This document shows, piece by piece, positions 4,991-60,642 of a stretch of 64,000 bases of DNA. Numbering within the stretch: the first letter of the stretch is position 1; every line of letters begins with the position of its first letter. The stretch lies in NCBI GenBank assembly GCA_965222035.1, contig OZ244940.1, forward strand, positions 1,287,134-1,351,133, in the 5' to 3' direction. Both the position numbers and the translations under genes were made by a program. This DNA comes from Candidatus Amphirhobacter sp. GTDB taxonomy: Bacteria; Pseudomonadota; Gammaproteobacteria; Tethybacterales; Tethybacteraceae. The notes beneath the pieces are model-generated. The model was not told the DNA's origin. It did no database searches and was given only the letters and a program-made list of their open reading frames with translations.

Positions 4991-7468
<2,478 letters not shown>

Positions 7469-19532: not shown

Positions 19533-22500
19533 ATGGCCGCTATCCTGGCCAGGACCTGGCTCAGGATCAGAAAAAAAAAGGGGGGGGGTAGAGCCTTGCA
19601 ACCTCGCGTAGCCACTGCCTGCTTCGCTTTAATCATCCTGCTCGCCGCGGCTGTCGCGCCGGCGCAGCAGGCCAATTGGGTAGACCAGGGACGCGATGGC
19701 GTGTCCCAGACCAGTTATTTCCATTTGCCGAGCACGACGGACAGCTCGACTGGCATCTCGTTCCATCGCAGCCACCCCAGCTGCCGCTTCAACGACGTGC
19801 GGCTGGTGAATCCGCCGACGTGGCTGGAGATGATCAAGTACAACGGGGACGCCAAGGACGGCGACCCCGGCACTCGCTTCACGGTGCGCATGGAGCGAGG
19901 CCATGCCGACGACCGCAGCCTGCGCCTGTCGTTCAAGGCCGGCTCGACCATGCCGACTGGAGCGCACACCCTGTCCCTGGCGGCCGAGCGCCACCTGACG
20001 AGCCCGGGCTGCTTGGGCGTCGCCGCCGCGACCTTGTCGCTGGAGTACACGATTAGCATCTTCGACAACATCTCGTGGATGGCGCAGGGGCTGCAGGCAT
20101 ATTATAACGGCGCGATCTACCGCACCGATGAGCTGGGCGGACTGGCGCTGGACACGGGCTTGCGGCTGCATCGCCGGCCGAACCTTTGCTCGAAGGTCGA
20201 CCTGTCTCTGGTCGGCGGTACCGAGGACTACCTGGAACTGCGCGCCTTTGAGGCGCAAAATGTTTTGTATCAAAGGCGGACAACGCCACCCTCTGGAGGA
20301 ACTACGGTTACCAACGTGGTCCTCAACACCGGGCGGCCGCTGGGCGCAGGAGCCGCCAGGCTTACCAACCTGGTCATGGATCGCGACAGCCCGCGCGACA
20401 GCTACGTGCGCTTGTTTCACAAGGCGAGCGTCGCTGTGTCCGAGGCGCTCGAGATAACCGTCTCGGTTGCATTCGAGACCAGCCGGAGCTGCGGTTTCCC
20501 GGCGACGGTGCGCAAGCAAACGCTGGATTTCATGCGGCATCATGTTGCGCTTGCGCCAACCCAGTACCAAGCCACATGGAAGCTGGAATCCGAGAGCCTG
20601 ACGCCGGACGGACCATTCAGCCCTGTGCGCATGAGAAGGTTCGGTTTAACGCCCACCGGCATTTTCTTAAATCGCTCTTCTTCCCTTTGCGTGGTTACAA
20701 ATATTCAGCTGCTCAACCACACTGACAAATTCGATATCTACGCCTCCGCGGGCGCCGACGCACTTACAGAAAACCAAGGCGATCATGCAATCAAAAACAA
20801 AACCGGCCATGCCATTGCCTGGGTTATACCAGATGGCAAGGATCTGCCCGCTGCGGGTAGTGTCCTGCGGCTGTCTGTGCTCATGCGATCCAATCCCTTT
20901 CAATGCACTAACAACAACATCGCGCCCAGACAGACCCTGGCTTTCGCCTTGACCGTAGCCACGCCGGCGACGTGGGGTGTCCTGGCCGGCGATGTCACAC
21001 GGCAGACGGGACTGCTCCAGCCGTCGGTGATCAGGGCGTCGGCCACACCGACGGACACCGGGGTGCGTTTCCACCGCGGCACCTCCGCATGCCCCTTAGT
21101 GGACATACTGATGCAACCCAATCCGCATTTGGAAATGCAACTGTACAACGGCAACACCGCGACTGGAGCGGGGGTCACCACAATAAACGGCGTGCGCATG
21201 CAGGTTGGCCATGCGGATGATCGTCTAGTGGGACTGCAGTTCCGGGAGCGAGCTACGGTGCCGAATGGCACGCTGACGGTCACGCTAGAGGCGAGCGCAT
21301 CATCTGGCTGCGAGGCTGCGGACGAGCCGTGGCCGTTGACCTTAACCTACACGCTGACAGTGCAGGAGCGCTGGTCGTGGGAGACGCAGAGCCGGGACAA
21401 CTTCGGCACTCAGCTGGAACTCTCGCGGGCGGACCTGGACGGGGCCGGCTTGGTGGCGACCGGCCTGCGGATCCATCGCGACTCCCATGCCTGCCAGAGC
21501 ACCGACGTGGCGCTGGCGGCGGACGCGCCGTCGTACCTGTCGCTGCGGCGCTACACCGCCGCGGGCGCGACGGACGGCGACGCGGCGGCGACGCTGGCCG
21601 GCGTGAACATGTCGGGATCAGGGGCGAATGACCGCCATGTGCAGGTGATGATCGACGGCGGCACGCAGATCACGCCGGGCGCGACCGTGCTGGTCACGCT
21701 GACGGTCAGCCCGAACTCGTCCTGCACCGGCAACCTCCATCCGGAGGCGCAGCAGCTGGTCGGCAAGGTGCTGCCTGTCAATCCGGACGGCTGGGAGAGC
21801 ATCGCCGGCGACGTGGCCTCGCGCCCGCGGATCCTGTTCCGGCCGTCGCAGCTGCGGGCGGCCGCCACGCCGACGGACACCGGGCTGCGCTTCCACCGCG
21901 GCACCGATTCGTGTCCGCTGGTGGATGTGGTGCTGCGGAACACCGATTATCTGCAGCTGCAGCGGTACACCCCCGCCGGCGCCGTGTCGGGCGCGGCGGG
22001 ATCGTCCTTCACCAACGTGCGCATGGCGGCCGGCCATGCCAGCGACCGGCTGGTGGGCGTGCAGTTCAAGGCCGGCGTCCAGGTCCCGGCGACTAGCCTG
22101 ACGCTGACGCTGGTGGCGCAGCCGGTGTCCTCCTGCGTCAATCCGCGCAAGCCGCGGCCGTTGACGATGTCTTACACGTTGGCGGTGGCGGAGCATTGGC
22201 CGTGGCGGCTCAAGCCGCAGGACAATCTAGGCATGGTGGTGAGCCTGGAGGTGGAGAACCTGGCGGTGTCCGGCCCGGTGGCGACCGGGCTGCGGCTGCA
22301 TCGCGACATCCTGGTGTGCTCGAACTTCGACGTGGCGCTGGCGGCGGACGCGCCGAGTTACCTGAAGCTGCGCAAGTACCTGGGCAACGGCGCGACGGAC
22401 GGCGCGGCGGCGCGGTCGCTGACGGGCGTGGACGTGTCCGGCGCGGGCGCGCTCGCCCGGCATGTGCGGGTGGCGATCGACGGCGGCACCAGCTTCACGG

Positions 22501-25500: not shown

Positions 25501-28500
25501 GGCCGTGGCGCAACCAGGCGCAGGACAATTTCGCGACGCGCGCGCAGATCGACGGCGCCGCCGTGCTGACTTCGGGCGCGGTCCCGACCGGCCTGCGGCT
25601 GCATCGCAACATCCTGGTGTGCTCGAGTTTTGACGTGGCGCTGGCGACGGGCACGCCGAGCTACGTGAAGCTGGGTAGTTACCGCGCCGACGGGACGGCG
25701 GACGGCGCGGCGGTGCGGTCGCTGGCGGGCGTGAACATGTCCGGCACGGGCGTGCTGGATCGCCATGTGCGGGTGACGTTCGACGGCGGGACGAGGTTCA
25801 GCGCCAGCGCCATCTTGCGCGTGACCTTGACGGTAGCGACCAACAGCTCCTGCGACAGCCAATCCGGCGCGCCGTCTGCGCAGGAGCTGGTCGCCGAGGT
25901 GGATGTGGTGCCGGCGCAGACGTGGAGCGCGCTGGCCGGCGAAGTGACGAGCCGCGACCGCATCCTGTTCAAGCCCACTCAAATCAGGGCAGCCAACTCA
26001 GCCACCGACACCGGACTGCGGCTGCATCGCGGCACTGCAGCCTGTCCGGATGTCGACATAACCTTGCGCAACACCACGCATCTGGAGCTGCGGAAATACA
26101 ACGGCAGCGCTGCTGACGGCGCGGCGGCAACGTTCTTCAACAACATTCGCATGAAGGCCGGCGACGCCAACGACCGGCTGGTGGGCGTGCAGTTCCGGGC
26201 GGGGGCGACGCTGACGGCAGGTCCGTTTACGCTGACCTTGATCGCGCGCCCGACCTCGGCGTGTACGAACCGGGCCCGGCCGGGTCCGCTGACGCTGGCC
26301 TACACGCTGTCGGTGCTGGAGAACTGGCCGCAGCGCAACCAGAGCCAGGACAATCTCGGTACGCGGGCGCGGATTGCGGCGCTGTCGATAGAGGATGGGA
26401 CCGGCGCGGTGCTGACCGGCTTGCGGCTGCATCGCAACATCCTGGTGTGCTCGAGCTTCGACGTGGCGCTGGCAAGCGGCACGCCGAGCTATGTGAAGCT
26501 GCGCAAGTACCAGACCAACGACACCGCGGATGGCGCAGCGGCGCGCTCCTTGACGGGCGTGGCCATGCTGGGCTCGGGCGCGGCCGACCGCCACGTGCGG
26601 ATCGCGATCGACGGCGGGACGAGCTTCACGCAGCAGACGACCTTGCCCATCACGATGACCTTGTCGACCAACAGTTCCTGCAGCAGCCAGTCGGGCGCGC
26701 CGGCTTCGCATCAACTGGTCGGCACAGTGGAAGTGGTGCCGCCGGCGGCCTGGAGTGCGTTGAACGGCGATGTCGCCAATCGCGACCGCATCTTGTTCCG
26801 GCCGTCGGCGATCAGGGCGGCCAGCTCGGCGATCGACACCGGGCTGCGGCTGCATCGCGGCAACACAGCTTGCCGGGAAGTCGCGGTGATTCTGAACAAC
26901 ACCACGCACTTGGAGCTGCGGCAATACACCAGCAGCGCGGCGACGGGATCGGCGGCGACGTTCTTCCCCTTCGTTCACATGGAGAACAACCATGCCAGCG
27001 ACCGGCGGGTGGGGGTGCAGTTCCGGGCGGGGGCGACGGTCTCGGCGGGCCCGCTGGAGTTGACGCTGGAGGTGGGGGCGAGCTCACTCTGCTCGCATAT
27101 CGCGAAGCCGCGTCCGCTGACGCTGTCGTACACGCTGTCGGTACAGGAAGACTGGCCGCTGCGCAACCAAGGCCAGGACAACCTTGGCACGCAGGCCCAG
27201 CTGCCGGCCTTGTCGCTGAGCGGCGTGTCCGGCGCGGTGCCGACCGGCCTGCGCTTGCACCGCAACATCTTCGTATGCTCGAGCTTCGACGTGGCGCTGG
27301 CGAGCGGCACGCCGAGCTATGTGAAGCTGCGCAAGTACCAGACCAACGGCACGGCGGACGGCGCGGCGGCGCGGTCGCTGACGGGCGTGGCCATGCCGGG
27401 CTCGGGCGCGGCCGACCGGCATGTGCGGATCGCGATCGACGGCGGCACGAGCTTCACGCAGCGGACGACCTTGCCAGTGACGCTGACGATGTCGACCAAC
27501 AGTTCCTGCGCGAGCCAATCGGGCGCGCCGGCTTCGCACCAGCTGGTCGGTACGGTGGTGGTGGTGCCGCCGGCGTCCTGGAGCGAGCTGGCCGGCGACG
27601 TGGACACGCTGGCGCAGACCTTGTTGTTCCAGCCGTCGGCGATCAGGGCGGCCAACTCGGCGACCGACACCGGCCTGCGGCTGCATCGCGGGACCGCGGC
27701 CTGCCCGAACGTGGACGTGACGCTGAACACCACCACGCACCTGGAGCTGCGGCAATACACCAGCAGCGCGGCGACGGGCTCGGCGGCGACCTTCTTCAAC
27801 AACATCCGCATGCAGAACAACCATGCCAATGACCGGCGGGTGGGCGTGCAGTTCCGGGCGGGCGCGACGCTGACGGCGGGTCGGCTGACGTTGACGCTGA
27901 TCGCGCGGGCGAACGCGTCCTGCACGGACCCGGCGAAGCCGCGTGACCTGACGGTGGCGTATGAGCTTGAGATTCGCGAGAACTGGCCGTGGCGCACGCA
28001 AGGCCAAGACAACCTCAGCACGCAGGCGCGGCTGGCCGTGCTGGCATTGAACTCGACCAATCCGGTGCTGACCGGACTGCGGCTGCATCGCGATTCGATA
28101 GCATGCCAGAGCACTGATGTGGCGCTGGCTTCGGATTCGCCGAGTTACCTGAAGCTGCGCAAGTACCAGGCCAACGGCACGGCGGACGGTTCAGCGGCGC
28201 GATCGCTGAGCGGCGTGAACATGTCCGGCTCGGGCGCGGCCGACCGCCACGTGCGGATCGCGATTGACGGCGGCACCAACATAGCGGCAGGAACCTTTTT
28301 GCGGGTGACGTTGACGGTCACGCGAAACTCCTCCTGCACGGGCCAGGGCCATCCGCCGGCGACGCAGCTGGTCGGTACGGTGGCGCTGGTGGCAGCCGAG
28401 GCTTGGGGCGCGTTGGCCGGCGACGTGGCCAACCGCGACCGCATCCTGTTCAAGCCGTCGCAGGTCAGGTCCTCCAACACGGCGACCGACACCGGGCTGC

Positions 28501-31500: not shown

Positions 31501-34500
31501 CGGCGCGGTCGCTGAGCGCCGTGGCCATGCCAGGCTCAGGCGCGGCCGACCGCCACGTGCGGATCGCGATCGACGGCGGCACGAGCTTCACGCAGCAGAC
31601 GACCTTGCCCATCACGATGACCATGTCGACCAACAGCTCCTGCGCCAGCCAGTCGGGCGCGCCGGTCTCGCATGAGTTGGTCGGCAGAGTGGTGATTGTG
31701 CCGCCGGCGGCCTGGAGCGCGCTGGCCGGCGACGTGCTTACGCGCCCCCGCATCCTGTTCCAGCCATCGGCGATCAGGTCGTCCAACACGGCGACCGACA
31801 CCGGGCTGCGTCTCCATCGTGGTACTTCGGCCTGTCCGAACGTGGACGTTACGCTGCGCAACACCACGCACCTGGAGCTGCGGCAATACACCAGCAGTTC
31901 AGCGACGGGCTCGGCGGCGACGTTCTTCCGCAACATTCGCATGCAGAACAACCATGCCAATGACCGGCGGGTGGGCGTGCAGTTCCGGGCGGGCGCGACG
32001 CTGACAGCGGGTCCATACGCGCTGACATTGGTCGCGAGCGCGAACTCCTCCTGCGCCGATGCGGCGAAGCCGCGTCCCTTGACGCTGGCGTACACGCTTT
32101 CGGTGGAGAACGGCTGGCCGCTGCGCAACCAGGGCCAAGACAATCTCGGGACGCAGGCGCGGCTGCCGGCCTTGTCGCTGAGCGGCGTGTCCGGCGTGGT
32201 GCCCACTGGCCTGCGCCTGCATCGCAACATCTTCGTATGCGACAGCTTCGACGTGGCGCTGGCGAACGGCACCCCGAGTTACGTGAAGCTGCGCAAATAC
32301 CAGACCAACGGCACGGCGGACGGCGCGGCGGCGCGATCGCTGACGGGCGTGGCCATGCCGGGCTCGGGCGCGAATGACCGGCATGTGAGGATCGCGATCG
32401 ACGGCGGCACGAGCTTCACGCAACAAACAACCTTGCCGGTGACGCTGACGATGTCGACCAACAGTTCCTGCGCGAGCCAGTCGGGCGCGCCGGCTTCGCA
32501 TCTGCTGGTGGGCACGGTGGTGGTGGTGCCGCCGGCGTCCTGGAGCGAGCTGGCCGGCGACGTGGACACGTTGGCGCAGACCCTGCTGTTCCAGCCGTCG
32601 CGGGTCCGCGCCTCCAACGCGGCGATTGATACCGGATTGCGGCTGCATCGCGGCACCGCGGCCTGCCCGAACGTCGATGTGACCTTGCGCAACACCATGC
32701 ATCTGGAGCTGCGGCAATACACCAGCAGCGCGGCGACGGGATTGGCGGCGACCTTCTTCAACAACATTCGCATGGAGAACAACCATGCCAATGACCGGCG
32801 GGTGGGCGTGCAGTTCCGGGCGGGCGCGACGTTGACGGCGGGTCGGCTGACGCTGACATTGATCGCGCGGGCGAACGCATCCTGCGCCAATGCGGCGAAG
32901 CCGCGTGATCTGACGGTGGCGTATGAGCTGGAAATACGCGAGAACTGGCCGTGGCGGACGCGGGGCCAGGACAATCTCAGTACGGAAGCGAAGTTGGCTG
33001 TGGCGGCGTTGAACACGACTGGCGAGGTGCCGACCGGCCTGCGGGTGCATCGCGATTCGCTGGCGTGCCAGAGCACCGATGTGGCGCTGGCGTCGGGTTC
33101 GCCGGCATACATGAAGCTGCGCAAGTACCAGGCCAATGGCACGGCGGACGGCTCAGCGGCGCGCTCGCTGACAGGCGTGAACATGTCCGGCTCGGGCGCG
33201 GCCGACCGGCATGTGCGGGTGACCTTCGATGGCGGCACCAACCTGGCGGTGGACATAACCTTGATGGTGACGCTGACGGTCACGCGCAACGCCTCGGCCT
33301 GCTCGGGTTTCGGGCACCCGCCGGCGACGCAGCTGGTCGGCACGGTGGCGATGGTAGCGGCCGCAACCTGGAGCACGCTGCCTGGCGATGTTGCCAATCG
33401 CGACCGCATCCTGTTCCGGCCGTCGGCGGTCAGGTCGTCCAACTCAGCGACCGACACCGGGCTGCGCTTTCACCGCAGCACTACGGTTTGCCCGGACATC
33501 GACGTGACCTTGCGCAACACCACGCACCTGGAGCTGCGGCAATACACCAGCAGTTCGGCGACGGGATCGGCGGCGGCATTCTTCCGCAACATGCGCATGC
33601 AGAACAACCATGCCAATGACCGGCGGGTGGGCGTGCAGTTCCGGGCGGGCGCGACGCTGACGCCGGGCCCGCTGACGCTGACCTTGATCGCGGAGGCCAA
33701 CTCTTCTTGCACCAACCCGGCCAAGCAGCTGCCGCTGACGCTGGCGTACACGCTGTCGGTGCAGGAGGACTGGCCGCTGCGCAACCAAGGCCAGGACAAT
33801 CTCGGTACGCAGGCGCGGCTGCCGGCGCTGTCGCTAGAGGGCGTGACCGGTACGGTGCCGACCGGCTTGCAGCTGCACCGCAACATCTTCGTGTGCGATA
33901 ACTTCGATGTGGCGTTGGCGAACGGCACGCCGAGCTACGTGAAGCTGCGGAAATACCAGGCCAACGGCAATGCGGACGGCGCGGCGGCGCGCTCGCTGAC
34001 GGGCGTAGACATGTCCGGCTCGGGCTCGACCGACCGGCATGTGCGGATCGCGATCGACGGCGGCACGAGCTTCACGCAGCAGACGACCTTGCCGATCACG
34101 CTGACGATGTCGACCAACAGCTCTTGCGCCAGCCAGTCGGGCGCGCCGGCTTCGCATCAGCTGGTGGGCACGGTGGTGGTGGTGCCGCCGGCGGCTTGGA
34201 GCGCGTTGGCCGGCGACGTGGCCGCGCGCGACCGCATCCTGTTCAAGCCGACGCAGATCGAAGCTTCCAACTCAGCGACCGACACCGGGCTGCGGCTGCA
34301 TCGCGGCACTTCAGCCTGTCCGAACGTCGATGTGACCTTGCGCAACACCACGCATCTGGAGCTGCGGCAATACACCAGCAGCGCAGCGACGGGCTCGGCG
34401 GCGACCTTCTTCAACAACATTCGCATGGAGAACAACCATGCCAATGACCGGCGGGTGGGCGTGCAGTTCCGGGCGGGCGCGACAGTGACGGCAGGGCCGT

Positions 34501-37500
34501 TCACGCTGACGCTGATCGCGCGGGCGAATGCGTCCTGCACGGACTCGGCGAAGCCGCGCGACCTGACGCTGGCCTACACGCTGTCGGTACTGGAGAACTG
34601 GCCGCAGCGCAACCAGGGTCAGGACAACCTCGGTACGCAGGCGCGGATGCCGGCGCTGTCGCTAGAGGGCGTGACCGGCGCGATACCCACCGGCTTGCGG
34701 CTGCACCGCAACATCTTCGTGTGCTCGAGCTTCGACGTGGCGCTGGCGTCCGGCACGCCGAGCTACGTGAAGCTGCGCAAGTACCAGACCAACGGCACGG
34801 CGGATGGCGCAGCGGCGCGGTCGCTGACGGGCGTGGCCATGCCGGGCTCGGGCGCGGCCGACCGCCACGTGCGGATCGCGATCGACGGCGGCACGAGCTT
34901 CACGCAGCAGACCACCTTGCCGATTACGATGACGATGTCGACCAACAGCTCCTGCGCCAGCCAGTCGGGCGCGCCGGTCTCGCACCAGCTGATTGGCACA
35001 GTAGTAGTGGTACCGCCGGCGGCCTGGAGCGCGCTGGCCGGCGACGTGCTCACGCGCCCCCGCATCCTGTTCAAGCCGACGCAGGTCAGGTCGTCCAACT
35101 CGGCGGTTGACACCGGGCTGCGCCTCCACCGCGGCACCTCGGCCTGTCCGAACGTGGATGTAACGCTGCGCAACACCACGCATCTGGAACTGCGTCAATA
35201 CACCAGCAATTCGGCGACTGGTTCGGCGGCGACGTTCTTCCGCAACATCCGCATGCAGAACAACCATGCCAATGACCGGCGGGTGGGCGTGCAGTTCCGG
35301 GCGGGCGCGACGCTGACAGCGGGCGCGTTCGAGCTGACATTGATCGTGAGCGCGAACTCCTCCTGCGCCGATGCGGCGAAGCCGCGTCCGCTGACGCTGG
35401 CATACACGCTGTCGGTGCAGGAAGACTGGCCGCTGCGCAACCAGGGCCAGGACAATCTCGGGACGCAGGCGCGGATCGCAGCTCTGTCGCTGAGCGGCGG
35501 GTCCGGCGTGGTGCAGACTGGACTGCGGCTGCACCGCAACATCTTCGTGTGCGACAGTTTCGACGTGGCGTTGGCGAACGGCACTCCGAATTACGTGAAG
35601 CTGGGCAAATACCAGGCCAACGGCACGGCGGACGGCGCGGCGGCGCGGTCCTTGACGGGCGTGGCCATGCCGGGCTCGGGCGCGAATGACCGGCATGTGC
35701 GGATCGCGATCGACGCCGGCACGAGCTTCACGACCTTGACGACGCTGCGGGTGACGATGACCTTGGCGACCAACAGCTCTTGCGCCAGCCAGTCGGGCGC
35801 GCCAGCCTCGCATGAGCTGGTCGGCGCGGTGGAGATAGTCCCGCCGGCGGCCTGGAGCGCATTGGCCGGCGATGTGTCCTCTTTGGCGCGGACCCTGCTG
35901 TTCCAGCCGTCGACGATCAGGTCTTCCAACACAGCTAGCGACACCGGCCTGCGGCTGCATCGCGGGACCTCGGCCTGTCCGGACGTCGACGTGACCTTGC
36001 GCAACACCACGCATCTGGAGCTGCGGAAATACAACGGCAGCACGGCGGACGGATCGGCGGCGACATTCTTCACCGACATTCGCATGCAGCAAGGCGACTC
36101 CAATGACCGGCGGGTGGGCGTGCAGTTCCGGGCGGGGGCGACGCTGACGGCGGGCCGGCTGACGCTGACGCTGATCGCGCGCGCGAACACGTCATGCACC
36201 AATGCGGCGAAGCCGCGCGACCTGACGGTGGCGTATGAGCTGGAGATTCGCGAGAACTGGCCGTGGCGGACGCAAGGCCGCGACAATCTCGGCACGCAAG
36301 CGCAGGTGGCTTCGGTGGCGCTGGAGACGACCGGCCCGGTACCGACCGGCCTGCGGCTGCATCGCGATTCGCTGGCGTGCCAGAGCACCAACGTGGCGCT
36401 GGCGTCCAACGCGCCGAGTTACCTGAAGCTGCTCAAGTACCGGAGCAACGGCACCGTGGACGGCTCGGCGACCCGGTCGCAGACGGCCGTGAACATGTCC
36501 GGCTCGGGCGCCAACGACCGCTACATAGAGGTCGCGGTCGACGGCGGTACCTCCATAGCGGTGGACACCACCTTGGCGGTGACGATGACCATCAGGCCGA
36601 ACTCCTCGTGCACCGGCCGGGGCCATCCGCCGGCGACGCAGGTGGTGGGCACGCTGGTCGTGGTCGAGGCCGCGCCCTGGAGCATGTTGACCGGCGACGT
36701 CGCCAATCGCGACCGCATCCTGTTCCGGCCGTCGGCGGTCAGGTCGTCTGGCTCGGCGACCGATACCGGCCTGCGCTTCCACCGCAGTACTACGGTCTGT
36801 CCGGACATCGATGTGACCCTGCGCAACACCGCGCATCTGGAGCTGCGGCAATACACCGGCAGTTCGGCGACGGGTTCGGCGGCGACATTCTTCCGCAACA
36901 TGCGCATGCAGAACAATCATGCCAACGATCGTCTGGTAGGAGTGCAGTTCCGGGCAGGCGCGAATGTCCCGGCGGGTCCGCTGGCGCTAACGTTGATCGC
37001 GGAGGCGAATTCGTCTTGCACCAATCCGGCGAAGCAATTGCCGCTTACCCTGGCGTACACGCTGGAAGTGCGGGAAGACTGGCTGCTGCGCAACCAGGGC
37101 CAGGACAATCTCGGCACGCAGGCGCGGCTGCCGGCCTTGTCGCTGAGCGGCGCGACCGGCGTGGTGCCCACCGGCCTGCGGCTGCACCGCAACATCCTGG
37201 TGTGCTCGAGCTTCGATGTGGCGCTGGCGAACGGCACGCCGAATTACGTGAAATTGGGCAAATACCAGGCCAACGGCAACGCGGACGGCGCGGCGGCGCG
37301 GTCGCTGACGGGCGTGGCCATGCCGGGATCGGGCGCGGCCGACCGGCATGTGCGGGTGGCGATCGACGCCGGCACGAGCTTCACGACCTTGACGACGCTG
37401 CGGGTGACGATGACCTTAGCGACCAACAGCTCTTGCGCCAGCCAGTCGGGCGCGCCGGCTTCGCATGTGCTGGTCGGCACGGTGGCGGTGGTGCCGCCGG

Positions 37501-40500
37501 CGGCCTGGAGCGAGCTGGCGGGCGACGTGGACACGTTGGCGCAGACCCTGCTGTTCCAGCCGTCGACGATCAGGTCTTCCAACACAGCGAGCGACACCGG
37601 CCTGCGGCTGCATCGCGGCACCTCGGCCTGCCCGGACGTCGATGTGACCCTGCGCAACACCACGCATCTGGAGCTGCGGCAATACACGAGCAGCGCGGCG
37701 ACGGGATCGGCGGCGACGTTCTTCACCAACATCCGCATGCAGAACAACCATGCCAATGACCGGCGGGTGGGCGTGCAGTTCCGGGCGGGCGCGACGCTGA
37801 CGGCGGGCCGGCTGACGCTGACATTGATCGCGCGGGCGAACGCCTCCTGCACCGATGCGGCGAAGCCGCGCGATCTGACGGTGGCGTACGAATTGGAAGT
37901 GCGCGAGAACTGGCCGTGGCGGACGCAAAGGGAAGACAACCTGAGCACGCAAGCGCGGGTGGCTTCGATCGCGCTGGAGACCACCGGTCCGGTGCCGACC
38001 GGCTTGAGAGTGCAGCGCGATTCGCTGGCGTGCCAGAGCACCGACGTGGCGCTGGCATCGGGATCGCCGGCCTACATGAAGCTGCTCAAATACCGGAGCA
38101 ACGGCACGGCGGACGGTTCCGAGGCGCGGACGCAGAGCGGCGTGAACATGTCTGGATCGGGTGCGAGCAACCGCTATGTAGGGGTCACGTTCGACGGCGG
38201 TACTAATATAGCGATTGACACCACCTTGCAGATCACGCTTACGGTCACGCCGAACTCCTCCTGCACGGGCCAGGGCCATCCGCCGGCGACGCAGGTGGTG
38301 GGCACGGTGGTCGTGGTCGAGGCCGAGCCCTGGAGCATCTTGACCGGCGACGTGGCCAACCGCGACCGGATCCTGTTCAAGCCGTCCCAGATCCAAGCGG
38401 GCGCGGCGACTGACACCGGCCTGCGCTTCCACCGCAGCACTTCGGTCTGTCCGGACATAGATGTGACGCTGCGCAACACCGCGCATCTGGAGCTGCGGCA
38501 ATACACCGGCAGTTCGGCGACGGGTTCGGCGGCGGCGTTCTTCCGCAACGTGCGCATGCAGGCCAACCATGCCAACGACCGGCGGATTGGAGTGCAGTTC
38601 CGGGCGGGCGCGAACGTCCCGGCGGGCCCGCTGACGCTGACGTTGATCGCGGAGGCGAACTCTTCCTGCACCAATCCGGCCAAGCAGTTGCCGCTGACCC
38701 TGTCCTACACGCTGGAGGTACGGGAGAACTGGCCGCTGCGCAGCCAGAACCGGGACTCTCTCGGTACGCAGGCGCGGATCGCGGCGCTGTCGGTGGGCAG
38801 CGCGACCGAGCCGCTGCAGACCGGCTTGCGCTTGCACCGCAACATTTTCGTGTGCTCGGAGTTCGACGTGGCGCTGGCGGCGGGCGCGCCGGCGTACCTG
38901 AAGCTGGGCAAATACCAGGCCAACGGCACCGCGGACGGCGCGCCGGCGCGGTCGCTGACGGGCGTGGCCATGCCGGGATCGGGCGCGGCCGACCGCCACG
39001 TGCGAGTGGCGATCGACGGCGGCACGAGCTTTACGGCCCTGACGACCGTGCAGGTGACGATGACCCTGGCGACCAACAGCACCTGCGCGAGCCAGTCGGG
39101 CGCGCCGGCTTCCTATCAGTTGGTCGGCACGGTGGTGATAGTGCCGCCGCAGGCCTGGGGCGCGTTGGCGGGCGACGTGGCGGAGCGGGACGACACCTTG
39201 TTCCGGCCGACGCGGATTCGCGCCTCGAACGCGGCGATCGACACCGGCTTGCGCTTCCACCGCGGCACTTCGGTCTGCCCGGACGTCGATGTGACGCTGA
39301 ACACCACGACGCACCTGGAGCTGCGCCAATACACCAGCAGCGCGGCGGACGGCGCGGCGGCGACGTTCTTCCGCAACGTGCGCATGCAGGCCAGCCACGC
39401 CAACGACCGGCGGGTGGGGGTGCAGTTCCGGGCGCGCGCGACGGTGACGCCGGGTCCGCTGACGCTGACGCTAGTGGCGCGGGCGGCTTCGAGCTGCACG
39501 GCGCTGAACGCGCCGGCGCCGCTGACCATGGCGTACACATTGGCGGCGCTGGAGAAATGGCCGTGGCGGATCCAGGGCCAGGACAGCTTCACCGCGCCGG
39601 CGAGCGTCTATCTCTCGGCCTTGGCGACGACGGGCGTAGTCCCGACCGGCCTGCGGGTGCACCGCAACTCGCCGGCGTGCTCGAGCGTCGACGTGGCGCT
39701 GGCGGCCGGCTCGCCGGCCTATCTGTCGCTGCAGCGCCACAGCGCGGCGGGTGTCGTTGACGGCGCGCCGGCGCGGTCGCTGACGGCGGTGAACATGGCG
39801 AGCACGGGCGCGGCCGCCCGGCATGCGCAGGTGATGATCGCGGGCGGGACCACCTTGACGACCGGCGCGACAGTGATGGTATCGCTGTCGATCGCGCCCA
39901 ACGCCTCCTGCGCCGGTACCGAGGGCGTCCAGGATCTAGCGGACCTGGTCGGCAGCATCCTGGTCCTCGGCCGGGGCCAGGAGGAGATTACGCAGGAATC
40001 GATCCAGGCGGGCAACGCCATGGCGATGCGCATGATGGGGCTGGAGACCCTGGATGCGGTGCTGGCGCGCGGCGCGGCGGGCTCGGGCGCGGCGGCCACC
40101 GAGCAGCTGCTCGGCATGCTGGCGGCCAAGGAAGCCGGGCTGGAGAGCGGCGACATCGACCTGCGCGAGTTCCTTGCGGGCCAGAGCTTCGAGCTGGCGG
40201 CGCGGCCGGGCACCGCATCAGGCGCGGGCGCCGCGATATGGGGCCGCGCGGCCGCCTTCAAGACCGCCTCGACGGTGTCGGCTGCGACAGAGCTGGAAAG
40301 CGAATTGTTCAGCGCGCACTTTGGGGGCGACTACCGCTGGAGCAACGGCTTCGTGCTGGGGCTGGGCCTCGGCCGCCACGAGCTGGAGGGTACTTATAAG
40401 GAAGAGAGGGTTGCCGGCAGCTATCAGCTGGAGCTGGATCTGTACCAGCCGTATGCGGTGATGCCGCTGGGCCCGGCTGGCTGGCTGGCGGCCTACGGCA

Positions 40501-41258
40501 GCCAGGGCAGCGGCGAGATCATGCTGGCCGCGGCTGAGGACGGCGCGGAAGACACCATGCATGATGCCGACTATATAGGATGGGGCCTGGGCTGGCGCAA
40601 CGACCTGGACGACCTGCGCATGCGCGCGAGCGCCAGCGGCGGCGACCTCGAAGCAGCTTTGGATGACGAGATGGCGTTGGATTCCAAGGCCGGCGTGGTG
40701 CGGCTGGGCGTGGCCTATGCGCCGAGCTTCGAAGCGATCCCGGTGCGGCCGGAGCTGGAGGCCGCATGGAGCAAGGACTGGGGCGACGCCCAGGTGGGGC
40801 AGCACTGGCTGTTGGGCCTGGGCCTGGAATACGCGGGCGACGGCCCGCTGCAGGCGCGCGTCGCTTACCAGCATGCGGTGGCGGGCGACGGCGACCTGGC
40901 GGGCCTGGAACTTGACTTCCGCTTCCTGCCCGGCCGCGGCGGCCTGGGCCCCTCCTTCGCTTTGCGCCCGGGCTACGGCCTGGCTACCGGCGCGGCGGTG
41001 TTCGATCAGGTTGCGCGGCCGTTCGCCTTTGACGGCGGCGATGATGATGGCGACCGGCGCCTGCGCGCTGAGATGGCCTGGGGCCTGCCGGTCAGCGGCG
41101 GGGTGTTGACGCCTTACAGCAACTTGAGTATTGACAGCGATCGCGACCAGCTCGGCGCAGGCCTGCGCCTGGGTACCGCCGCGGCCGGATCCTGGCAACT
41201 GGGCTGGCAGCGCGAGGACAGCAGCAGCCTGCGGCTGCAGCTGCGCATCGGCGACTAA
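19533..41258 (+). CDS. Giant (7241 aa) secreted repeat protein: signal peptide, ~46 tandem ~140-aa two-cysteine domains, and a C-terminal ~430-aa autotransporter-like beta-barrel domain
   Basis: A single uninterrupted ORF. The N-terminus after the A9G9 tract is a signal peptide (ALQPRVATACFALIILLAAAVAPAQQ). Two alternating sub-repeat types share the core TGLR[LF]HR...C..DV.L....L.L..Y...G..DG.AA....V.M.....DR.V.V.F..G.....C. The C-terminus reads ...AIWGRAAAF...LFSAHFGGDYRWSNGFVLGLGLG... with alternating amphipathic strands and ends ELHLELRIGD. A TAAAAT box lies 10 nt upstream of the ATG. Confidence 0.85.
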   Translation: MAAILARTWLRIRKKKGGGRALQPRVATACFALIILLAAAVAPAQQANWVDQGRDGVSQTSYFHLPSTTDSSTGISFHRSHPSCRFNDVRLVNPPTWLEMIKYNGDAKDGDPGTRFTVRMERGHADDRSLRLSFKAGSTMPTGAHTLSLAAERHLTSPGCLGVAAATLSLEYTISIFDNISWMAQGLQAYYNGAIYRTDELGGLALDTGLRLHRRPNLCSKVDLSLVGGTEDYLELRAFEAQNVLYQRRTTPPSGGTTVTNVVLNTGRPLGAGAARLTNLVMDRDSPRDSYVRLFHKASVAVSEALEITVSVAFETSRSCGFPATVRKQTLDFMRHHVALAPTQYQATWKLESESLTPDGPFSPVRMRRFGLTPTGIFLNRSSSLCVVTNIQLLNHTDKFDIYASAGADALTENQGDHAIKNKTGHAIAWVIPDGKDLPAAGSVLRLSVLMRSNPFQCTNNNIAPRQTLAFALTVATPATWGVLAGDVTRQTGLLQPSVIRASATPTDTGVRFHRGTSACPLVDILMQPNPHLEMQLYNGNTATGAGVTTINGVRMQVGHADDRLVGLQFRERATVPNGTLTVTLEASASSGCEAADEPWPLTLTYTLTVQERWSWETQSRDNFGTQLELSRADLDGAGLVATGLRIHRDSHACQSTDVALAADAPSYLSLRRYTAAGATDGDAAATLAGVNMSGSGANDRHVQVMIDGGTQITPGATVLVTLTVSPNSSCTGNLHPEAQQLVGKVLPVNPDGWESIAGDVASRPRILFRPSQLRAAATPTDTGLRFHRGTDSCPLVDVVLRNTDYLQLQRYTPAGAVSGAAGSSFTNVRMAAGHASDRLVGVQFKAGVQVPATSLTLTLVAQPVSSCVNPRKPRPLTMSYTLAVAEHWPWRLKPQDNLGMVVSLEVENLAVSGPVATGLRLHRDILVCSNFDVALAADAPSYLKLRKYLGNGATDGAAARSLTGVDVSGAGALARHVRVAIDGGTSFTGLTTVRVTMTVATNASCASESGAPSARALVGTVAVFTAKEEWKTLAGDVARRDTVLFNRVYLTATDTGLRFHRGTDACPDVDIALSSVDQLQLQLYNSSGSAVGSASDSFTNVRMKSNDTNDRLVGVLFPANTIIPSGTGSSTLTLTATPNASCTNPGKPDDLVLTYTLYVGDTWPWRTQARDNFGTTVSMAQLALTGTNPVPTGLRIHRDSQDCQGTDVDLASASPSYLKLGKYRANGTADGAAARSLDDVYMFGSGSVDRHVEVMIDGTTSFTGLTTLKVTLTVAPGLCVASTLPDDETLVGNLVMVPPEAWGILSGDVAALARTKLFQPSALRAAASASDTGLRIHRGTAACPDVDVVLRTAQHLELQGYDASGIATGSASSALRNVRMQSISPNDRLVGLQFKAGTQVTPGMLTATVEMSANASCTHVAAPAGLTLTYTLAVLEHWPWRTQPQDNMNSPGQVSQGALTGTTNPVQVGLRLHRDTLACQNVDVALASNAPSYMKIGKYRANGASDGAVARSLTGVNMSGSGADDRHVRVSFDGGANVQVNTDIKITMTLTPNATSCTGVGHPPATQLVGTVIVRRGAAWLELNGNVATLNHTILFQPSTLRTSTTPTDTGLRVHRGTSTCPDIDITLRTTTHMEMQKYTAAGVKDGAASIAFATLRMENNHNSDRRVGLQFRSGVSIAAGMLTATVVVSATPTCAAVYPVPLTLAYTLAVLEYWPWRSQAQHNFGTQARFPHLSLGGTNPTPTGLRLHRDARACQSIDVALHSGAPSYLKLRKHQADGTADGAAARSLSGVNMSGTGAAGRHVRVAIDSGSGLAANTTVMVTLTVSPNSSCAGVGHPPAQQLVGTAVAVPPEDWSVLAGDISAAGRLLFPPSRTRSSNTAIDTGLRLHRGTNACPDVNVTLRNTMHLELRRYQGTRSTGDAATFFTNVRMQAGNANDRRIGVQFRAGAQVPAGPVELTLVAEASASCTDAAKPRPLTLSYTLSALENWPWRNQAQDNFATRAQIDGAAVLTSGAVPTGLRLHRNILVCSSFDVALATGTPSYVKLGSYRADGTADGAAVRSLAGVNMSGTGVLDRHVRVTFDGGTRFSASAILRVTLTVATNSSCDSQSGAPSAQELVAEVDVVPAQTWSALAGEVTSRDRILFKPTQIRAANSATDTGLRLHRGTAACPDVDITLRNTTHLELRKYNGSAADGAAATFFNNIRMKAGDANDRLVGVQFRAGATLTAGPFTLTLIARPTSACTNRARPGPLTLAYTLSVLENWPQRNQSQDNLGTRARIAALSIEDGTGAVLTGLRLHRNILVCSSFDVALASGTPSYVKLRKYQTNDTADGAAARSLTGVAMLGSGAADRHVRIAIDGGTSFTQQTTLPITMTLSTNSSCSSQSGAPASHQLVGTVEVVPPAAWSALNGDVANRDRILFRPSAIRAASSAIDTGLRLHRGNTACREVAVILNNTTHLELRQYTSSAATGSAATFFPFVHMENNHASDRRVGVQFRAGATVSAGPLELTLEVGASSLCSHIAKPRPLTLSYTLSVQEDWPLRNQGQDNLGTQAQLPALSLSGVSGAVPTGLRLHRNIFVCSSFDVALASGTPSYVKLRKYQTNGTADGAAARSLTGVAMPGSGAADRHVRIAIDGGTSFTQRTTLPVTLTMSTNSSCASQSGAPASHQLVGTVVVVPPASWSELAGDVDTLAQTLLFQPSAIRAANSATDTGLRLHRGTAACPNVDVTLNTTTHLELRQYTSSAATGSAATFFNNIRMQNNHANDRRVGVQFRAGATLTAGRLTLTLIARANASCTDPAKPRDLTVAYELEIRENWPWRTQGQDNLSTQARLAVLALNSTNPVLTGLRLHRDSIACQSTDVALASDSPSYLKLRKYQANGTADGSAARSLSGVNMSGSGAADRHVRIAIDGGTNIAAGTFLRVTLTVTRNSSCTGQGHPPATQLVGTVALVAAEAWGALAGDVANRDRILFKPSQVRSSNTATDTGLRFHRGTSVCPDVDVTLRNTTHLELRQYTSSSATGSANTFFRNIRMQNNHANDRRVGVQFRAGATLTPGPLTLTLIAEANASCTNPAKPVPLTQAYTLSVQEDWPLRNQGQDNLGTQARLPALSLSGVSGAVPTGLRLHRNIFVCSSFDVALASGTPSYVKLRKYQTNGTADGAAARSLTGVAMPGSGAADRHVRIAIDGGTSFTGLTTLPITLTMSTNSSCASQSGAPASHQLVGTVVVVPPASWSELTGDVDTLAQTLLFQPSAIRAANSATDTGLRLHRGTSACPNVDVTLRNTTHLELRQYTSSAATGSAATFFNNIRMQNNHANDRRVGVQFRAGATLTAGRLTLTLIARANASCADAAKPRDLTVAYELEIRENWPWRTQGQDNLSTQARLAVLALNSTDPVPTGLRVHRDSLACQSTDVALASGSPAYMKLRKYQTNGTADGSAARSLSGVNMSGSGAADRHVRVTFDGGTDLAAGTNLQITLTVTPNSSCTGQGHPPATQLVGTVALVAAEAWVALAGDVNNRDRILFRPSAIRAASSATDIGLRFHRGTSVCPDVDVTLRNTTHLELRQYTSSAATGSAATFFTNIRMQNNHANDRRVGVQFRAGATLTPGPLTLTLIAEANASCTNLAKPLPLTQAYTLSVQEQWPLRNQDQDNLGTQARLPALSLEGVSGAVPTGLRLHRNIFVCDNFDVALASGTPSYVKLRKYQTNGTADGAAARSLTGVDMSGSGANDRHVRIAIDGGTSFTQQTTLPITLTMSTNSSCASQSGAPASHQLVGTVVVVPPAAWSALNGDVANRDRILFKPTEIRASGSGIDTGLRLHRGTSACPNVDVTLHTTTHLELLQYSSTGSTGATSTFFNNIRMQNNHAQDRRVGVKFNPGETVPAGPLTLTLIARANSSCTDPAKPRDLTLAYTLSVLENWPLRNQGQDNLGTQARMPALSLEGVTGAIPTGLRLHRNIFVCSSFDVALASGTPSYVKLRKYQTNGTADGAAARSLSAVAMPGSGAADRHVRIAIDGGTSFTQQTTLPITMTMSTNSSCASQSGAPVSHELVGRVVIVPPAAWSALAGDVLTRPRILFQPSAIRSSNTATDTGLRLHRGTSACPNVDVTLRNTTHLELRQYTSSSATGSAATFFRNIRMQNNHANDRRVGVQFRAGATLTAGPYALTLVASANSSCADAAKPRPLTLAYTLSVENGWPLRNQGQDNLGTQARLPALSLSGVSGVVPTGLRLHRNIFVCDSFDVALANGTPSYVKLRKYQTNGTADGAAARSLTGVAMPGSGANDRHVRIAIDGGTSFTQQTTLPVTLTMSTNSSCASQSGAPASHLLVGTVVVVPPASWSELAGDVDTLAQTLLFQPSRVRASNAAIDTGLRLHRGTAACPNVDVTLRNTMHLELRQYTSSAATGLAATFFNNIRMENNHANDRRVGVQFRAGATLTAGRLTLTLIARANASCANAAKPRDLTVAYELEIRENWPWRTRGQDNLSTEAKLAVAALNTTGEVPTGLRVHRDSLACQSTDVALASGSPAYMKLRKYQANGTADGSAARSLTGVNMSGSGAADRHVRVTFDGGTNLAVDITLMVTLTVTRNASACSGFGHPPATQLVGTVAMVAAATWSTLPGDVANRDRILFRPSAVRSSNSATDTGLRFHRSTTVCPDIDVTLRNTTHLELRQYTSSSATGSAAAFFRNMRMQNNHANDRRVGVQFRAGATLTPGPLTLTLIAEANSSCTNPAKQLPLTLAYTLSVQEDWPLRNQGQDNLGTQARLPALSLEGVTGTVPTGLQLHRNIFVCDNFDVALANGTPSYVKLRKYQANGNADGAAARSLTGVDMSGSGSTDRHVRIAIDGGTSFTQQTTLPITLTMSTNSSCASQSGAPASHQLVGTVVVVPPAAWSALAGDVAARDRILFKPTQIEASNSATDTGLRLHRGTSACPNVDVTLRNTTHLELRQYTSSAATGSAATFFNNIRMENNHANDRRVGVQFRAGATVTAGPFTLTLIARANASCTDSAKPRDLTLAYTLSVLENWPQRNQGQDNLGTQARMPALSLEGVTGAIPTGLRLHRNIFVCSSFDVALASGTPSYVKLRKYQTNGTADGAAARSLTGVAMPGSGAADRHVRIAIDGGTSFTQQTTLPITMTMSTNSSCASQSGAPVSHQLIGTVVVVPPAAWSALAGDVLTRPRILFKPTQVRSSNSAVDTGLRLHRGTSACPNVDVTLRNTTHLELRQYTSNSATGSAATFFRNIRMQNNHANDRRVGVQFRAGATLTAGAFELTLIVSANSSCADAAKPRPLTLAYTLSVQEDWPLRNQGQDNLGTQARIAALSLSGGSGVVQTGLRLHRNIFVCDSFDVALANGTPNYVKLGKYQANGTADGAAARSLTGVAMPGSGANDRHVRIAIDAGTSFTTLTTLRVTMTLATNSSCASQSGAPASHELVGAVEIVPPAAWSALAGDVSSLARTLLFQPSTIRSSNTASDTGLRLHRGTSACPDVDVTLRNTTHLELRKYNGSTADGSAATFFTDIRMQQGDSNDRRVGVQFRAGATLTAGRLTLTLIARANTSCTNAAKPRDLTVAYELEIRENWPWRTQGRDNLGTQAQVASVALETTGPVPTGLRLHRDSLACQSTNVALASNAPSYLKLLKYRSNGTVDGSATRSQTAVNMSGSGANDRYIEVAVDGGTSIAVDTTLAVTMTIRPNSSCTGRGHPPATQVVGTLVVVEAAPWSMLTGDVANRDRILFRPSAVRSSGSATDTGLRFHRSTTVCPDIDVTLRNTAHLELRQYTGSSATGSAATFFRNMRMQNNHANDRLVGVQFRAGANVPAGPLALTLIAEANSSCTNPAKQLPLTLAYTLEVREDWLLRNQGQDNLGTQARLPALSLSGATGVVPTGLRLHRNILVCSSFDVALANGTPNYVKLGKYQANGNADGAAARSLTGVAMPGSGAADRHVRVAIDAGTSFTTLTTLRVTMTLATNSSCASQSGAPASHVLVGTVAVVPPAAWSELAGDVDTLAQTLLFQPSTIRSSNTASDTGLRLHRGTSACPDVDVTLRNTTHLELRQYTSSAATGSAATFFTNIRMQNNHANDRRVGVQFRAGATLTAGRLTLTLIARANASCTDAAKPRDLTVAYELEVRENWPWRTQREDNLSTQARVASIALETTGPVPTGLRVQRDSLACQSTDVALASGSPAYMKLLKYRSNGTADGSEARTQSGVNMSGSGASNRYVGVTFDGGTNIAIDTTLQITLTVTPNSSCTGQGHPPATQVVGTVVVVEAEPWSILTGDVANRDRILFKPSQIQAGAATDTGLRFHRSTSVCPDIDVTLRNTAHLELRQYTGSSATGSAAAFFRNVRMQANHANDRRIGVQFRAGANVPAGPLTLTLIAEANSSCTNPAKQLPLTLSYTLEVRENWPLRSQNRDSLGTQARIAALSVGSATEPLQTGLRLHRNIFVCSEFDVALAAGAPAYLKLGKYQANGTADGAPARSLTGVAMPGSGAADRHVRVAIDGGTSFTALTTVQVTMTLATNSTCASQSGAPASYQLVGTVVIVPPQAWGALAGDVAERDDTLFRPTRIRASNAAIDTGLRFHRGTSVCPDVDVTLNTTTHLELRQYTSSAADGAAATFFRNVRMQASHANDRRVGVQFRARATVTPGPLTLTLVARAASSCTALNAPAPLTMAYTLAALEKWPWRIQGQDSFTAPASVYLSALATTGVVPTGLRVHRNSPACSSVDVALAAGSPAYLSLQRHSAAGVVDGAPARSLTAVNMASTGAAARHAQVMIAGGTTLTTGATVMVSLSIAPNASCAGTEGVQDLADLVGSILVLGRGQEEITQESIQAGNAMAMRMMGLETLDAVLARGAAGSGAAATEQLLGMLAAKEAGLESGDIDLREFLAGQSFELAARPGTASGAGAAIWGRAAAFKTASTVSAATELESELFSAHFGGDYRWSNGFVLGLGLGRHELEGTYKEERVAGSYQLELDLYQPYAVMPLGPAGWLAAYGSQGSGEIMLAAAEDGAEDTMHDADYIGWGLGWRNDLDDLRMRASASGGDLEAALDDEMALDSKAGVVRLGVAYAPSFEAIPVRPELEAAWSKDWGDAQVGQHWLLGLGLEYAGDGPLQARVAYQHAVAGDGDLAGLELDFRFLPGRGGLGPSFALRPGYGLATGAAVFDQVARPFAFDGGDDDGDRRLRAEMAWGLPVSGGVLTPYSNLSIDSDRDQLGAGLRLGTAAAGSWQLGWQREDSSSLRLQLRIGD
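19571..19588 (+). repeat. Homopolymeric A9-G9 tract inside the 5' end of the giant gene, between the ATG and the signal peptide; a candidate slipped-strand phase-variation site
   Basis: aaaaaaaaa ggggggggg occupies codons 13-19 and is currently in frame. Equivalent G tracts occur at the same relative position in three paralogs. Confidence 0.7.
21450..39700 (+). repeat. About 22 tandem copies of a ~827-bp coding repeat (each encoding two ~140-aa domains) with high DNA identity
   Basis: The landmark string ccgagctacgtgaagctgcgcaagtaccagaccaacggcacggcgg recurs at ~26480, 27318, 28141, 28965, 29795, 30615, 31447, 32274, 33110, 33935, 34760, 35585, 36418, 37250, 38070 and 38895, giving a period of 820-838 bp. 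Confidence 0.85.
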
Positions 41259-52269: not shown

Positions 52270-52324
52270 GGTTGGCCGGCGGGCTCCGGCTCCGGCGGTT
52301 TCCTGTATTGTAAAATGGCTTGGA

Positions 52325-57416: not shown

Positions 57417-57550
57417 TTGTATTTTACCTTCGCAAGGGGCGAGAAACATAAAAACAGGGGTTGCATGCTCATGCAAGCCATCGCATGCAAGATGGTAGCA
57501 TTGAGGATCAGCCGCCACCGCAGGCATTTCCGCATAAAATAACATTTGCC

Positions 57551-58560: not shown

Positions 58561-60642
<2,082 letters not shown>

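Follow-up and report, generated by a model that had tools for sequence, protein, structure and literature searches.

We analyzed a 64,000-nucleotide stretch of the genome of Candidatus Amphirhobacter sp. (Gammaproteobacteria; contig OZ244940.1, positions 1,287,134 to 1,351,133), in the following called the window, which harbors an exceptionally long open reading frame of 21.7 kb. We suggest that this giant gene probably encodes a divergent type Va (classical, monomeric) autotransporter and that its product most likely is a surface fibre, which could act as an adhesin or as a spacer. The deduced protein of 7241 amino acids is composed of a signal peptide, 49 two-cysteine modules, three of them divergent and the others arranged as 23 A/B pairs, and a C-terminal domain of 427 amino acids. 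By profile comparison and structure modelling we identify the C-terminal domain as a divergent autotransporter (type Va) translocator barrel, and from the identity of this barrel follows what the giant protein would be and where it would be located. The features of the giant gene are given below in window positions.

19533..41258, plus strand: giant gene, 7241 amino acids, about 762 kDa, isoelectric point 9.2 (open reading frame list and translation)
19533..19664, plus strand: Sec-type signal peptide, residues 1-44 (read from the sequence by eye)
19668..20972, plus strand: three divergent N-terminal two-cysteine modules (identity matrix, cysteine pairs and HMMER stretches)
20973..39980, plus strand: 23 tandem A/B didomain units (46 modules), about 134-142 amino acids per module and about 825 nucleotides per didomain
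39978..40175, plus strand: conserved helical linker, residues ~6816-6881, motif LLGMLAAKEA.LESG.IDLR.FLAGQ.F (family alignments)
40185..41255, plus strand: C-terminal beta-barrel region, residues ~6885-7241, ending in ...LRLQLRIGD

The giant open reading frame has the position and the length which the first-pass annotation of the window had given; it starts with ATG and extends over 7241 codons without a single internal stop. The GC content at the three codon positions is 0.62, 0.55 and 0.87, and the longest open reading frame in the other frames of the region has 660 amino acids. As the base composition lets one expect about 0.02 stops per random codon, 7241 open codons exclude chance and the giant frame is genuine. 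The signal peptide has a basic n-region which is followed by the hydrophobic stretch FALIILLAAAV and then by APA/QQ. An alternative TTG start is found at residue 22 (nucleotide 19596), and the orthologue P0028 starts at the same position; judged by the sequence this TTG may be the true start of the giant gene. The order of signal peptide, passenger and barrel is borne out by the coordinates of the hidden Markov model (HMM) matches. To count the protein among the largest bacterial proteins was overstated, however. With 7241 amino acids it is large, but bacterial protein predictions of up to 85,804 amino acids have been reported (bioRxiv 10.1101/2023.11.21.568195).

The motif TG[LI]R[LF]HR...C occurs 49 times in the giant protein and a profile HMM of the module (HMMER) likewise delineates 49 module stretches. 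The earlier count of about 46 copies is right for the canonical A/B modules, yet the total is 49 with the three divergent N-terminal modules, whose cysteine pairs are 84/160, 219/320 and 386/458. An identity matrix sets modules 1-3 apart and resolves modules 4-49 into 23 alternating A/B didomains. Neighboring A and B modules are only about 26% identical whereas modules of the same type, that is, at even lags, share 60-97% identity, so that the alternation of two sub-types noticed earlier is real. Higher-order periodicities of two, four and six didomains are present at the protein and at the DNA level. Relative to the consensus the copies in the centre reach 83-90% identity and those at the edges 55-62%; such central homogeneity is expected if units in the interior of the array were duplicated in tandem or homogenised. 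Between copies, the ratio of nonsynonymous to synonymous substitution rates (dN/dS) is 0.5-0.6 at a dS of about 0.5. We resolved the repeat structure of the DNA by self-BLAST, in which the 23 didomain units give rise to 22 shifted diagonals. The 22 tandem DNA repeats counted in the first-pass annotation correspond to these diagonals and not to the number of units. Tandem Repeats Finder reported nothing relevant, its longest period being 500 nucleotides against a unit of about 825 nucleotides.

Of the 99 cysteines of the giant protein, C30 belongs to the signal peptide and the other 98 form 49 pairs. Within a pair the cysteines are spaced by 72-78 residues (73-74 in A modules, 76-78 in B modules) with a single outlier of 101. 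In an alignment of all 68 modules of the window, 49 from the giant protein and 19 from its paralogs, the two cysteines are the sole invariant columns; together with the near-invariant columns the conserved positions read C, C, G, R, L, Y, G. Thus the two invariant cysteines had been recognized correctly, but not their spacing, which had been put at 76-80 residues. The giant protein also has 101 N-x-S/T sequons where about 61 are expected. In 22 of the 23 B modules and in 14 of the 23 A modules an N-x-S directly precedes the second cysteine, and other sequons recur at fixed offsets. On the basis of the sequence it is possible that the enriched sequons are glycosylation sites or merely structural residues.

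What kind of domain is the module? In the giant protein, the paralogs and the relatives P0015-P0017 the two-cysteine module has no significant match in Pfam-A or NCBIfam. When the N-terminus, the middle of the array and the C-terminus were scanned, Pfam and NCBIfam returned only noise (DUF4882, choice_anch_V, NrfB and others, far below the cut-offs), and the module profile does not find any PDB sequence even at E ≤ 10. The module is therefore unnamed, as had been supposed. AlphaFold2, provided with an alignment of the 23 internal copies, modelled an A+B didomain as two all-beta domains with a mean predicted local distance difference test (pLDDT) of 88.6 and a predicted template modelling score (pTM) of 0.76. 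Both modelled domains are beta-sandwiches, in agreement with the earlier guess. The nearest solved folds are the extracellular (EC) domains of cadherins, with a sequence identity of only 4-12%. Foldseek retrieves the pilins CfaB/CfaE/LpfD/SafD and cadherin arrays at E ≥ 4e-6 and template modelling (TM) scores of 0.25-0.40. At the level of the fold we predict with confidence that the module is a Greek-key, immunoglobulin (Ig)/cadherin-like beta-sandwich. In the model both cysteines lie at one end of the sandwich, the first immediately ahead of strand B and the second immediately behind strand F. An invariant cysteine pair in an exported protein fits an intradomain disulfide, which probably staples the two sheets.

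The first-pass annotation had stated that the module is not BIg, cadherin, HYR or FG-GAP. This is true for the sequence families, yet by fold the cadherin EC domains are the nearest solved structures. We rejected the cadherin domain proper (PF00028) because there is no Pfam match at E ≤ 1 and no acidic Ca2+ motif in the 68-module alignment. BIg, HYR, FG-GAP, He_PIG, PKD and Calx-beta were rejected as well, as the modules of the giant protein, the paralogs and P0015-P0017 have no Pfam or NCBIfam match to them. Four weak matches in the tail of the module-profile search (P0053, P0054, P0057, P0064), considered as a possible parent superfamily, turned out to be unrelated PKD, CBM and Calx-beta proteins, which overlap with the profile over 30-60 strand-like positions. 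Compared with cadherin EC arrays the tandem, rod-like arrangement is similar. The module, however, lacks calcium motifs of the DxD, DxNDN or LDRE type, has about 135 amino acids against about 110 in a cadherin EC domain, and it alone possesses the conserved cysteine (disulfide) pair.

The C-terminal domain comprises residues 6815-7241 and is shared with four paralogs encoded downstream, with an identity of 46-57%. The conserved domain of about 430 amino acids which the first-pass annotation had left unidentified is thus real (427 amino acids), and here it is recognized as an autotransporter-type barrel. Its helical linker is the best-conserved stretch of the family; in the model it forms helices 17-49 and 54-73, and hhalign aligns it to the database protein P0012. 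We presume that the linker is a pore-spanning or junction segment. The connection to known autotransporters is a transitive one. P0012 (682 amino acids) passes the Pfam thresholds for He_PIG and for the autotransporter barrel family PF03797 (35.5 versus 26 bits). A search of PDB sequences with the C-terminal profile found nothing meaningful. A profile of the five C-termini matches P0012 at E 5e-27, and hhalign of the C-terminal profile against P0012 gives a probability of 99.3% and E 9e-21 over 354 columns. In P0012 as well as in the paralog with a direct match the PF03797 alignment covers only the first half of the Pfam profile. In the AlphaFold2 model of the C-terminal domain about 18 antiparallel strands come after two long helices, and the second half of the model is of low confidence. 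The best superpositions are with barrels of 12 strands, the number found in canonical type Va barrels, though the prediction gives about 18 strand segments. The classical beta region spans about 255-280 residues; the beta region of the giant protein has about 345.

We suggest that the protein reaches its place in the following steps. The Sec signal peptide would direct the protein to the periplasm. The C-terminal barrel of about 360 residues, with the helical linker ahead of it, would then be inserted into the outer membrane, by analogy through the beta-barrel assembly machinery (BAM). By homology to type Va the N-terminal passenger should be threaded to the cell surface. There it would consist of 49 cadherin/Ig-like Greek-key modules, and in each of them a single disulfide would probably connect the beginning of strand B with the end of strand F. 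The 23 A/B didomains could serve as an extension stalk, and assuming a cadherin-like length of about 4-4.5 nm for each of the 49 modules the fibre would measure about 0.2 µm. The three divergent N-terminal modules would form the distal tip and are the candidate ligand-binding end. The shorter paralogs with 1-6 modules could display related tips nearer to the cell surface. Finally, the array has probably grown as A/B blocks were duplicated in tandem in a family that is specific to its lineage. We infer surface exposure, disulfides, rod length, adhesive function and the timing of cysteine oxidation from these comparisons.

Several observations weigh against an autotransporter. The C-terminal 541 amino acids of the giant protein have no Pfam match including PF03797, and the best PF03797 score of a paralog, 18.1 bits at E 0.0024, stays below the cut-off of 26. 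The model of the C-terminal domain has a pLDDT of only 63.8, and generic barrels score just 3-4 Z units below the best superpositions. Proteobacterial outer-membrane proteins typically end in an aromatic residue, whereas the proteins of this family end in the non-aromatic sequences ...RIGD or ...YRLGD. There is also no adhesion- or secretion-related partner gene conserved nearby. The passengers of type V systems are normally poor in cysteines, these are closely spaced, and large disulfide loops inhibit translocation (PMC8151025; PMC9769942). The passenger of the giant protein has 98 cysteines in 49 pairs, which are 72-101 residues apart. It is possible that the cysteines are kept reduced until they are outside the cell, that oxidised modules can pass, or that the barrel is of a larger type. 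In the lectin domain of intimin the disulfide spacing is about 78 residues. This disulfide depends on DsbA and is a partial precedent for passage in the oxidised state (PMC8151025).

A strongly repetitive gene raises the question whether the length of the array is an artefact of repeats which were expanded, collapsed or chimerically joined in the assembly. The relative P0017, from a short-read scaffold (L007 632-7648, ENA ERZ23497095), could speak for this as it has 2338 amino acids and only 14 modules and is a mosaic of a head like that of the 1275-amino-acid paralog and a C-terminus like that of the giant protein. Its residues 2-810 are 70% identical to this paralog; the remainder corresponds to the final ~2200 residues of the giant protein, with a near-identical C-terminus. 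As far as its sequence tells, P0017 could be a true recombinant or a shorter allele, or else a collapse or chimera of the short-read assembly. In the giant gene itself the didomain copies share only 66-78% identity at the DNA level, and no exact repeat is longer than 110 nucleotides. The reading frame is unbroken across 21.7 kb and the source contig has 1.86 Mb. Moreover, the contig L002 (ENA ERZ25072724) from an independent low-coverage long-read metagenome is collinear with window positions 27768-39367 over 11,609 nucleotides and 14 didomains, with 97.9% identity and 9 gap positions. Over the 3,858 codons compared there are no in-frame stops, 156 of the 237 differences fall on third positions, and the ratio of nonsynonymous to synonymous polymorphism (pN/pS) is 0.14. 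Because these differences look evolutionary and not like error noise, L002 represents a sister strain; the array is kept between the strains, and purifying selection acts on the gene. The first-pass annotation had pointed to a possible artefact, and the long reads largely dispel this concern for positions 27768-39367, with the first ~8 kb of the gene lying outside of this independent check. Another large member of the family (3755 amino acids, 21 modules) sits on a long-read contig of 46x coverage, and the 595-amino-acid paralog is 100% identical to the database protein P0005 (NCBI/ENA), which is recorded on a 1.86-Mb contig. An assembly artefact is unlikely, and that the array length as such should be spurious we consider very improbable.

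Accepting the array as it stands, the conflict between the cysteines and the known loop-size limit could be solved if within type V the family had become a new sub-class, in which a barrel enlarged beyond 12 strands, together with the double-helix linker, exports modules in a folded or oxidised state and does not follow the route of the unfolded hairpin. The ~18 predicted strands and the beta region of ~345 residues instead of ~255-280, the restriction of PF03797 to the first half of its profile, the two long helices ahead of the barrel, the non-aromatic C-terminus and the 49 disulfide-competent loops of ~75 residues, which exceed the limit known so far (PMC8151025, PMC9769942), all fit this idea. 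On the other hand, the second half of the model is of low confidence, the DsbA-dependent lectin-domain disulfide of intimin is already a wide-loop precedent within type V (PMC8151025), and the cysteines could simply remain reduced until they arrive at the surface. We regard such a sub-class as unlikely. Many classical autotransporters cleave their passengers, so that the modules could also be released and build an extracellular matrix, a sheath or an S-layer-like scaffold instead of an anchored adhesin. The repetitive stalk modules, which evolve fairly freely (dN/dS of 0.5-0.6 between copies) as for a structural polymer, and the presence of five paralogs in one cluster would suit this proposal. 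But the Pfam and NCBIfam scans reveal neither a protease domain nor a recognisable cleavage motif, and anchored fibrillar adhesins are classically built in this way, with a divergent tip on a uniform stalk (PMC7493085, PMC6272769). Release of the passenger is therefore rather unlikely. The wide-loop conflict would vanish altogether if the barrel were a mere membrane anchor and the array remained on the periplasmic side, DsbA being a periplasmic protein. Homology and fold, however, are those of autotransporter translocators with external N-terminal passengers, an array of 762 kDa and about 0.2 µm would hardly fit into a periplasm which is a few tens of nanometres wide, and tandem Ig-like modules with stalk and tip are typical of surface fibres. 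This arrangement is extremely unlikely, and an autotransporter with an anchored surface fibre is the reading which we prefer.

It is instructive to compare the predicted autotransporter with known systems. With the type Va proteins EspP, Hbp, AIDA-I, NalP and EstA it shares the order of signal peptide, N-terminal passenger, helical linker and C-terminal barrel and, transitively, the sequence link to PF03797. It differs by a passenger of 49 tandem beta-sandwich modules in place of a beta-helix or an enzyme, by 98 widely paired cysteines, by the barrel of ~345 residues and ~18 predicted strands, by the ...RIGD end and in that the giant protein itself stays short of the Pfam threshold for PF03797. 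The inverse autotransporters (type Ve: intimin, invasin, YeeJ) similarly carry tandem Ig-like modules with a distal binding tip on a small outer-membrane barrel, and the tip domain of intimin also has a DsbA-dependent disulfide (PMC8151025). In the giant protein the order is reversed, with the barrel at the C-terminus and the tip at the N-terminus, the modules are not BIg domains, and every module has a cysteine pair. Type Ve itself is excluded, because the barrel at residues 6815-7241 is C-terminal. The RTX giants SiiE, MpIBP and LapA resemble the giant protein in having hundreds of kDa and tens of beta-sandwich extenders which project a binding region (PMC6272769, PMC7493085). The giant protein would in contrast be anchored by its own barrel, and it lacks conserved acidic Ca2+-linker columns, disulfides probably stabilising the modules instead. 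An RTX adhesin of a type I secretion system was rejected since Pfam finds no RTX repeats (HemolysinCabind) in the C-terminal 541 amino acids, a type I secretion signal is lacking and the window contains no type I secretion genes. Among type Va the chlamydial Pmp proteins, with cysteine-rich passengers of up to 18 cysteines, are noted in the literature as an exception not yet looked into (PMC8151025; PMC9769942). Their passengers are beta-helical with GGA(I/L/V) and FxxN repeats, whereas the giant protein has 98 cysteines paired within beta-sandwich modules.

How widespread is the module? A word-indexed search with a single didomain found only three proteins and missed the giant protein itself. 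We therefore performed an exhaustive HMMER pass with the module profile over 1.84 billion representatives. This yielded 60 module clusters at E ≤ 1e-3 and 46 at E ≤ 1e-10, the giant protein included. The large relatives have 3755, 3638 (truncated), 2338 and 2054 amino acids with 21, 26, 14 and 7-10 modules, respectively. The barrel is present in each of the 27 sequences which carry modules and whose C-terminus is intact (23 retrieved ones and the four paralogs of the window); the others are fragments. The barrel family is broader than the module, as P0012 and a protein from a Longimicrobiales metagenome-assembled genome have He_PIG or Calx-beta-like passengers. In the GTDB genome scan the latter (Gemmatimonadota), with a passenger of Calx-beta-like repeats, was the single distant barrel relative. 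Taken by itself this relative would hint at, but does not prove, that the window stems from Gemmatimonadota. It is a 1123-amino-acid open reading frame (L004 28-3399, OZ251497.1) with several Calx-beta-like repeats, a He_PIG-like segment and the barrel, in which the RLDAEMAWG motif of the window family is present. Because of this open reading frame we conclude that related barrels in Gemmatimonadota carry other beta-sandwich passengers. In six more distant relatives (P0016, which is L005 10001-21268, P0022, P0025, P0026, P0037 and P0040) one or more extra acidic domains of about 100 amino acids are located between the last two-cysteine module and the barrel. These domains, with motifs such as DD.DDPP..L.. 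and F.ATDD.G, do not occur in the proteins of the window. P0025 looks as if two neighboring genes of the family had been read through; after its barrel at 499-925 come another signal peptide and further modules.

The four paralogs lie downstream of the giant gene.

41323..45150, plus strand: paralog of 1275 amino acids with signal peptide, 6 modules and the same barrel
46645..48432, plus strand: paralog of 595 amino acids with signal peptide, 1 module and the same barrel
48571..52269, plus strand: paralog of 1232 amino acids with 6 modules, the same barrel and a short N-terminus
52325..56113, plus strand: paralog of 1262 amino acids with 6 modules and the same barrel

They had been credited with one to four domains each, which is not correct. 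The inference that the number of domains is plastic nevertheless holds, with 1 to 49 modules across the family. The 1262-amino-acid paralog is counted from Met69 (nucleotide 52325) of a 1330-amino-acid open reading frame which opens at 52121. This longer frame overlaps with the 3′ end of the preceding gene, and Met69 is the plausible start. The product of 52121-56113 is the sole protein of the window with a direct, sub-threshold PF03797 match. The 1232-amino-acid paralog begins with MLACAFAAEA, a stretch probably too short for a complete signal peptide, and the orthologue P0018 starts in the same way.

Two genes for nucleoside triphosphatases (NTPases) of the AAA_22/ATPase_2 type, 79% identical to each other, are located at 45306-46463 and 56256-57545 (both minus strand). 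Each of them comes immediately after an autotransporter paralog and is encoded on the other strand. Likewise, an AAA_22 gene comes after the P0017 gene and another is found close by (L007 7763-8971, 17124-17648), and the P0016 gene is preceded by an AAA_14/DUF4143 gene (L005 8251-9456). NCBIfam does not name any of the NTPase genes, which could be a duplicated pair or a functional partner. At 58561-60642 (plus strand), 2.4 kb downstream of the paralog cluster, a TMEM260-like protein O-mannosyltransferase is encoded (PF11028, E 1.9e-14). Eukaryotic TMEM260 and TMTC1-4 O-mannosylate the beta-sandwiches of IPT and cadherin domains (PMC10214176, PMC11292533). As no such gene is found in the flanks of L001, L005, L006 and L007, its proximity may be a coincidence.

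Directly upstream of the giant gene lies a gene with Schlafen/AlbA_2 and HATPase_c_4 domains (17522-19150, minus strand) and farther upstream an FRG-domain/TPR gene (7550-8836, plus strand). Both are in patches of low GC content (0.556-0.557 versus ~0.68 elsewhere), which may be horizontally acquired islands, perhaps related to defence. The window covers the chromosomal origin region with dnaA (1158-2564), dnaN (3741-4877) and gyrB (4994-7468), and the cumulative GC skew climbs steadily from about 20 kb on. Rfam has no family at gathering score across the 64-kb window.

In summary, the two-cysteine module is a new extender module without a counterpart in Pfam, NCBIfam or PDB, which is rare and, wherever the C-terminus is intact, tied to one barrel family. 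The giant protein is a test case for type V secretion as 49 loops of about 75 residues would have to be exported, and the 595-amino-acid paralog with its single module offers a small construct for the question whether the modules cross in the oxidised or in the reduced state. There is a small chance that the family represents a distinct branch of type V which exports long disulfide-stapled chains, either via a barrel of more than 12 strands which lets pre-oxidised modules pass or by a dedicated mechanism which holds the 98 cysteines reduced in the periplasm and has them oxidised outside. If true, the rule that autotransporter passengers tolerate small loops only would be overturned and a new family of extender modules would be defined. 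As judged from sequence and models, the passengers of autotransporters would not be confined to beta-helices. They may also take the form of an Ig-like fibre of about 0.2 µm, an architecture which is otherwise linked to the type I-secreted RTX adhesins and to the inverse autotransporters.

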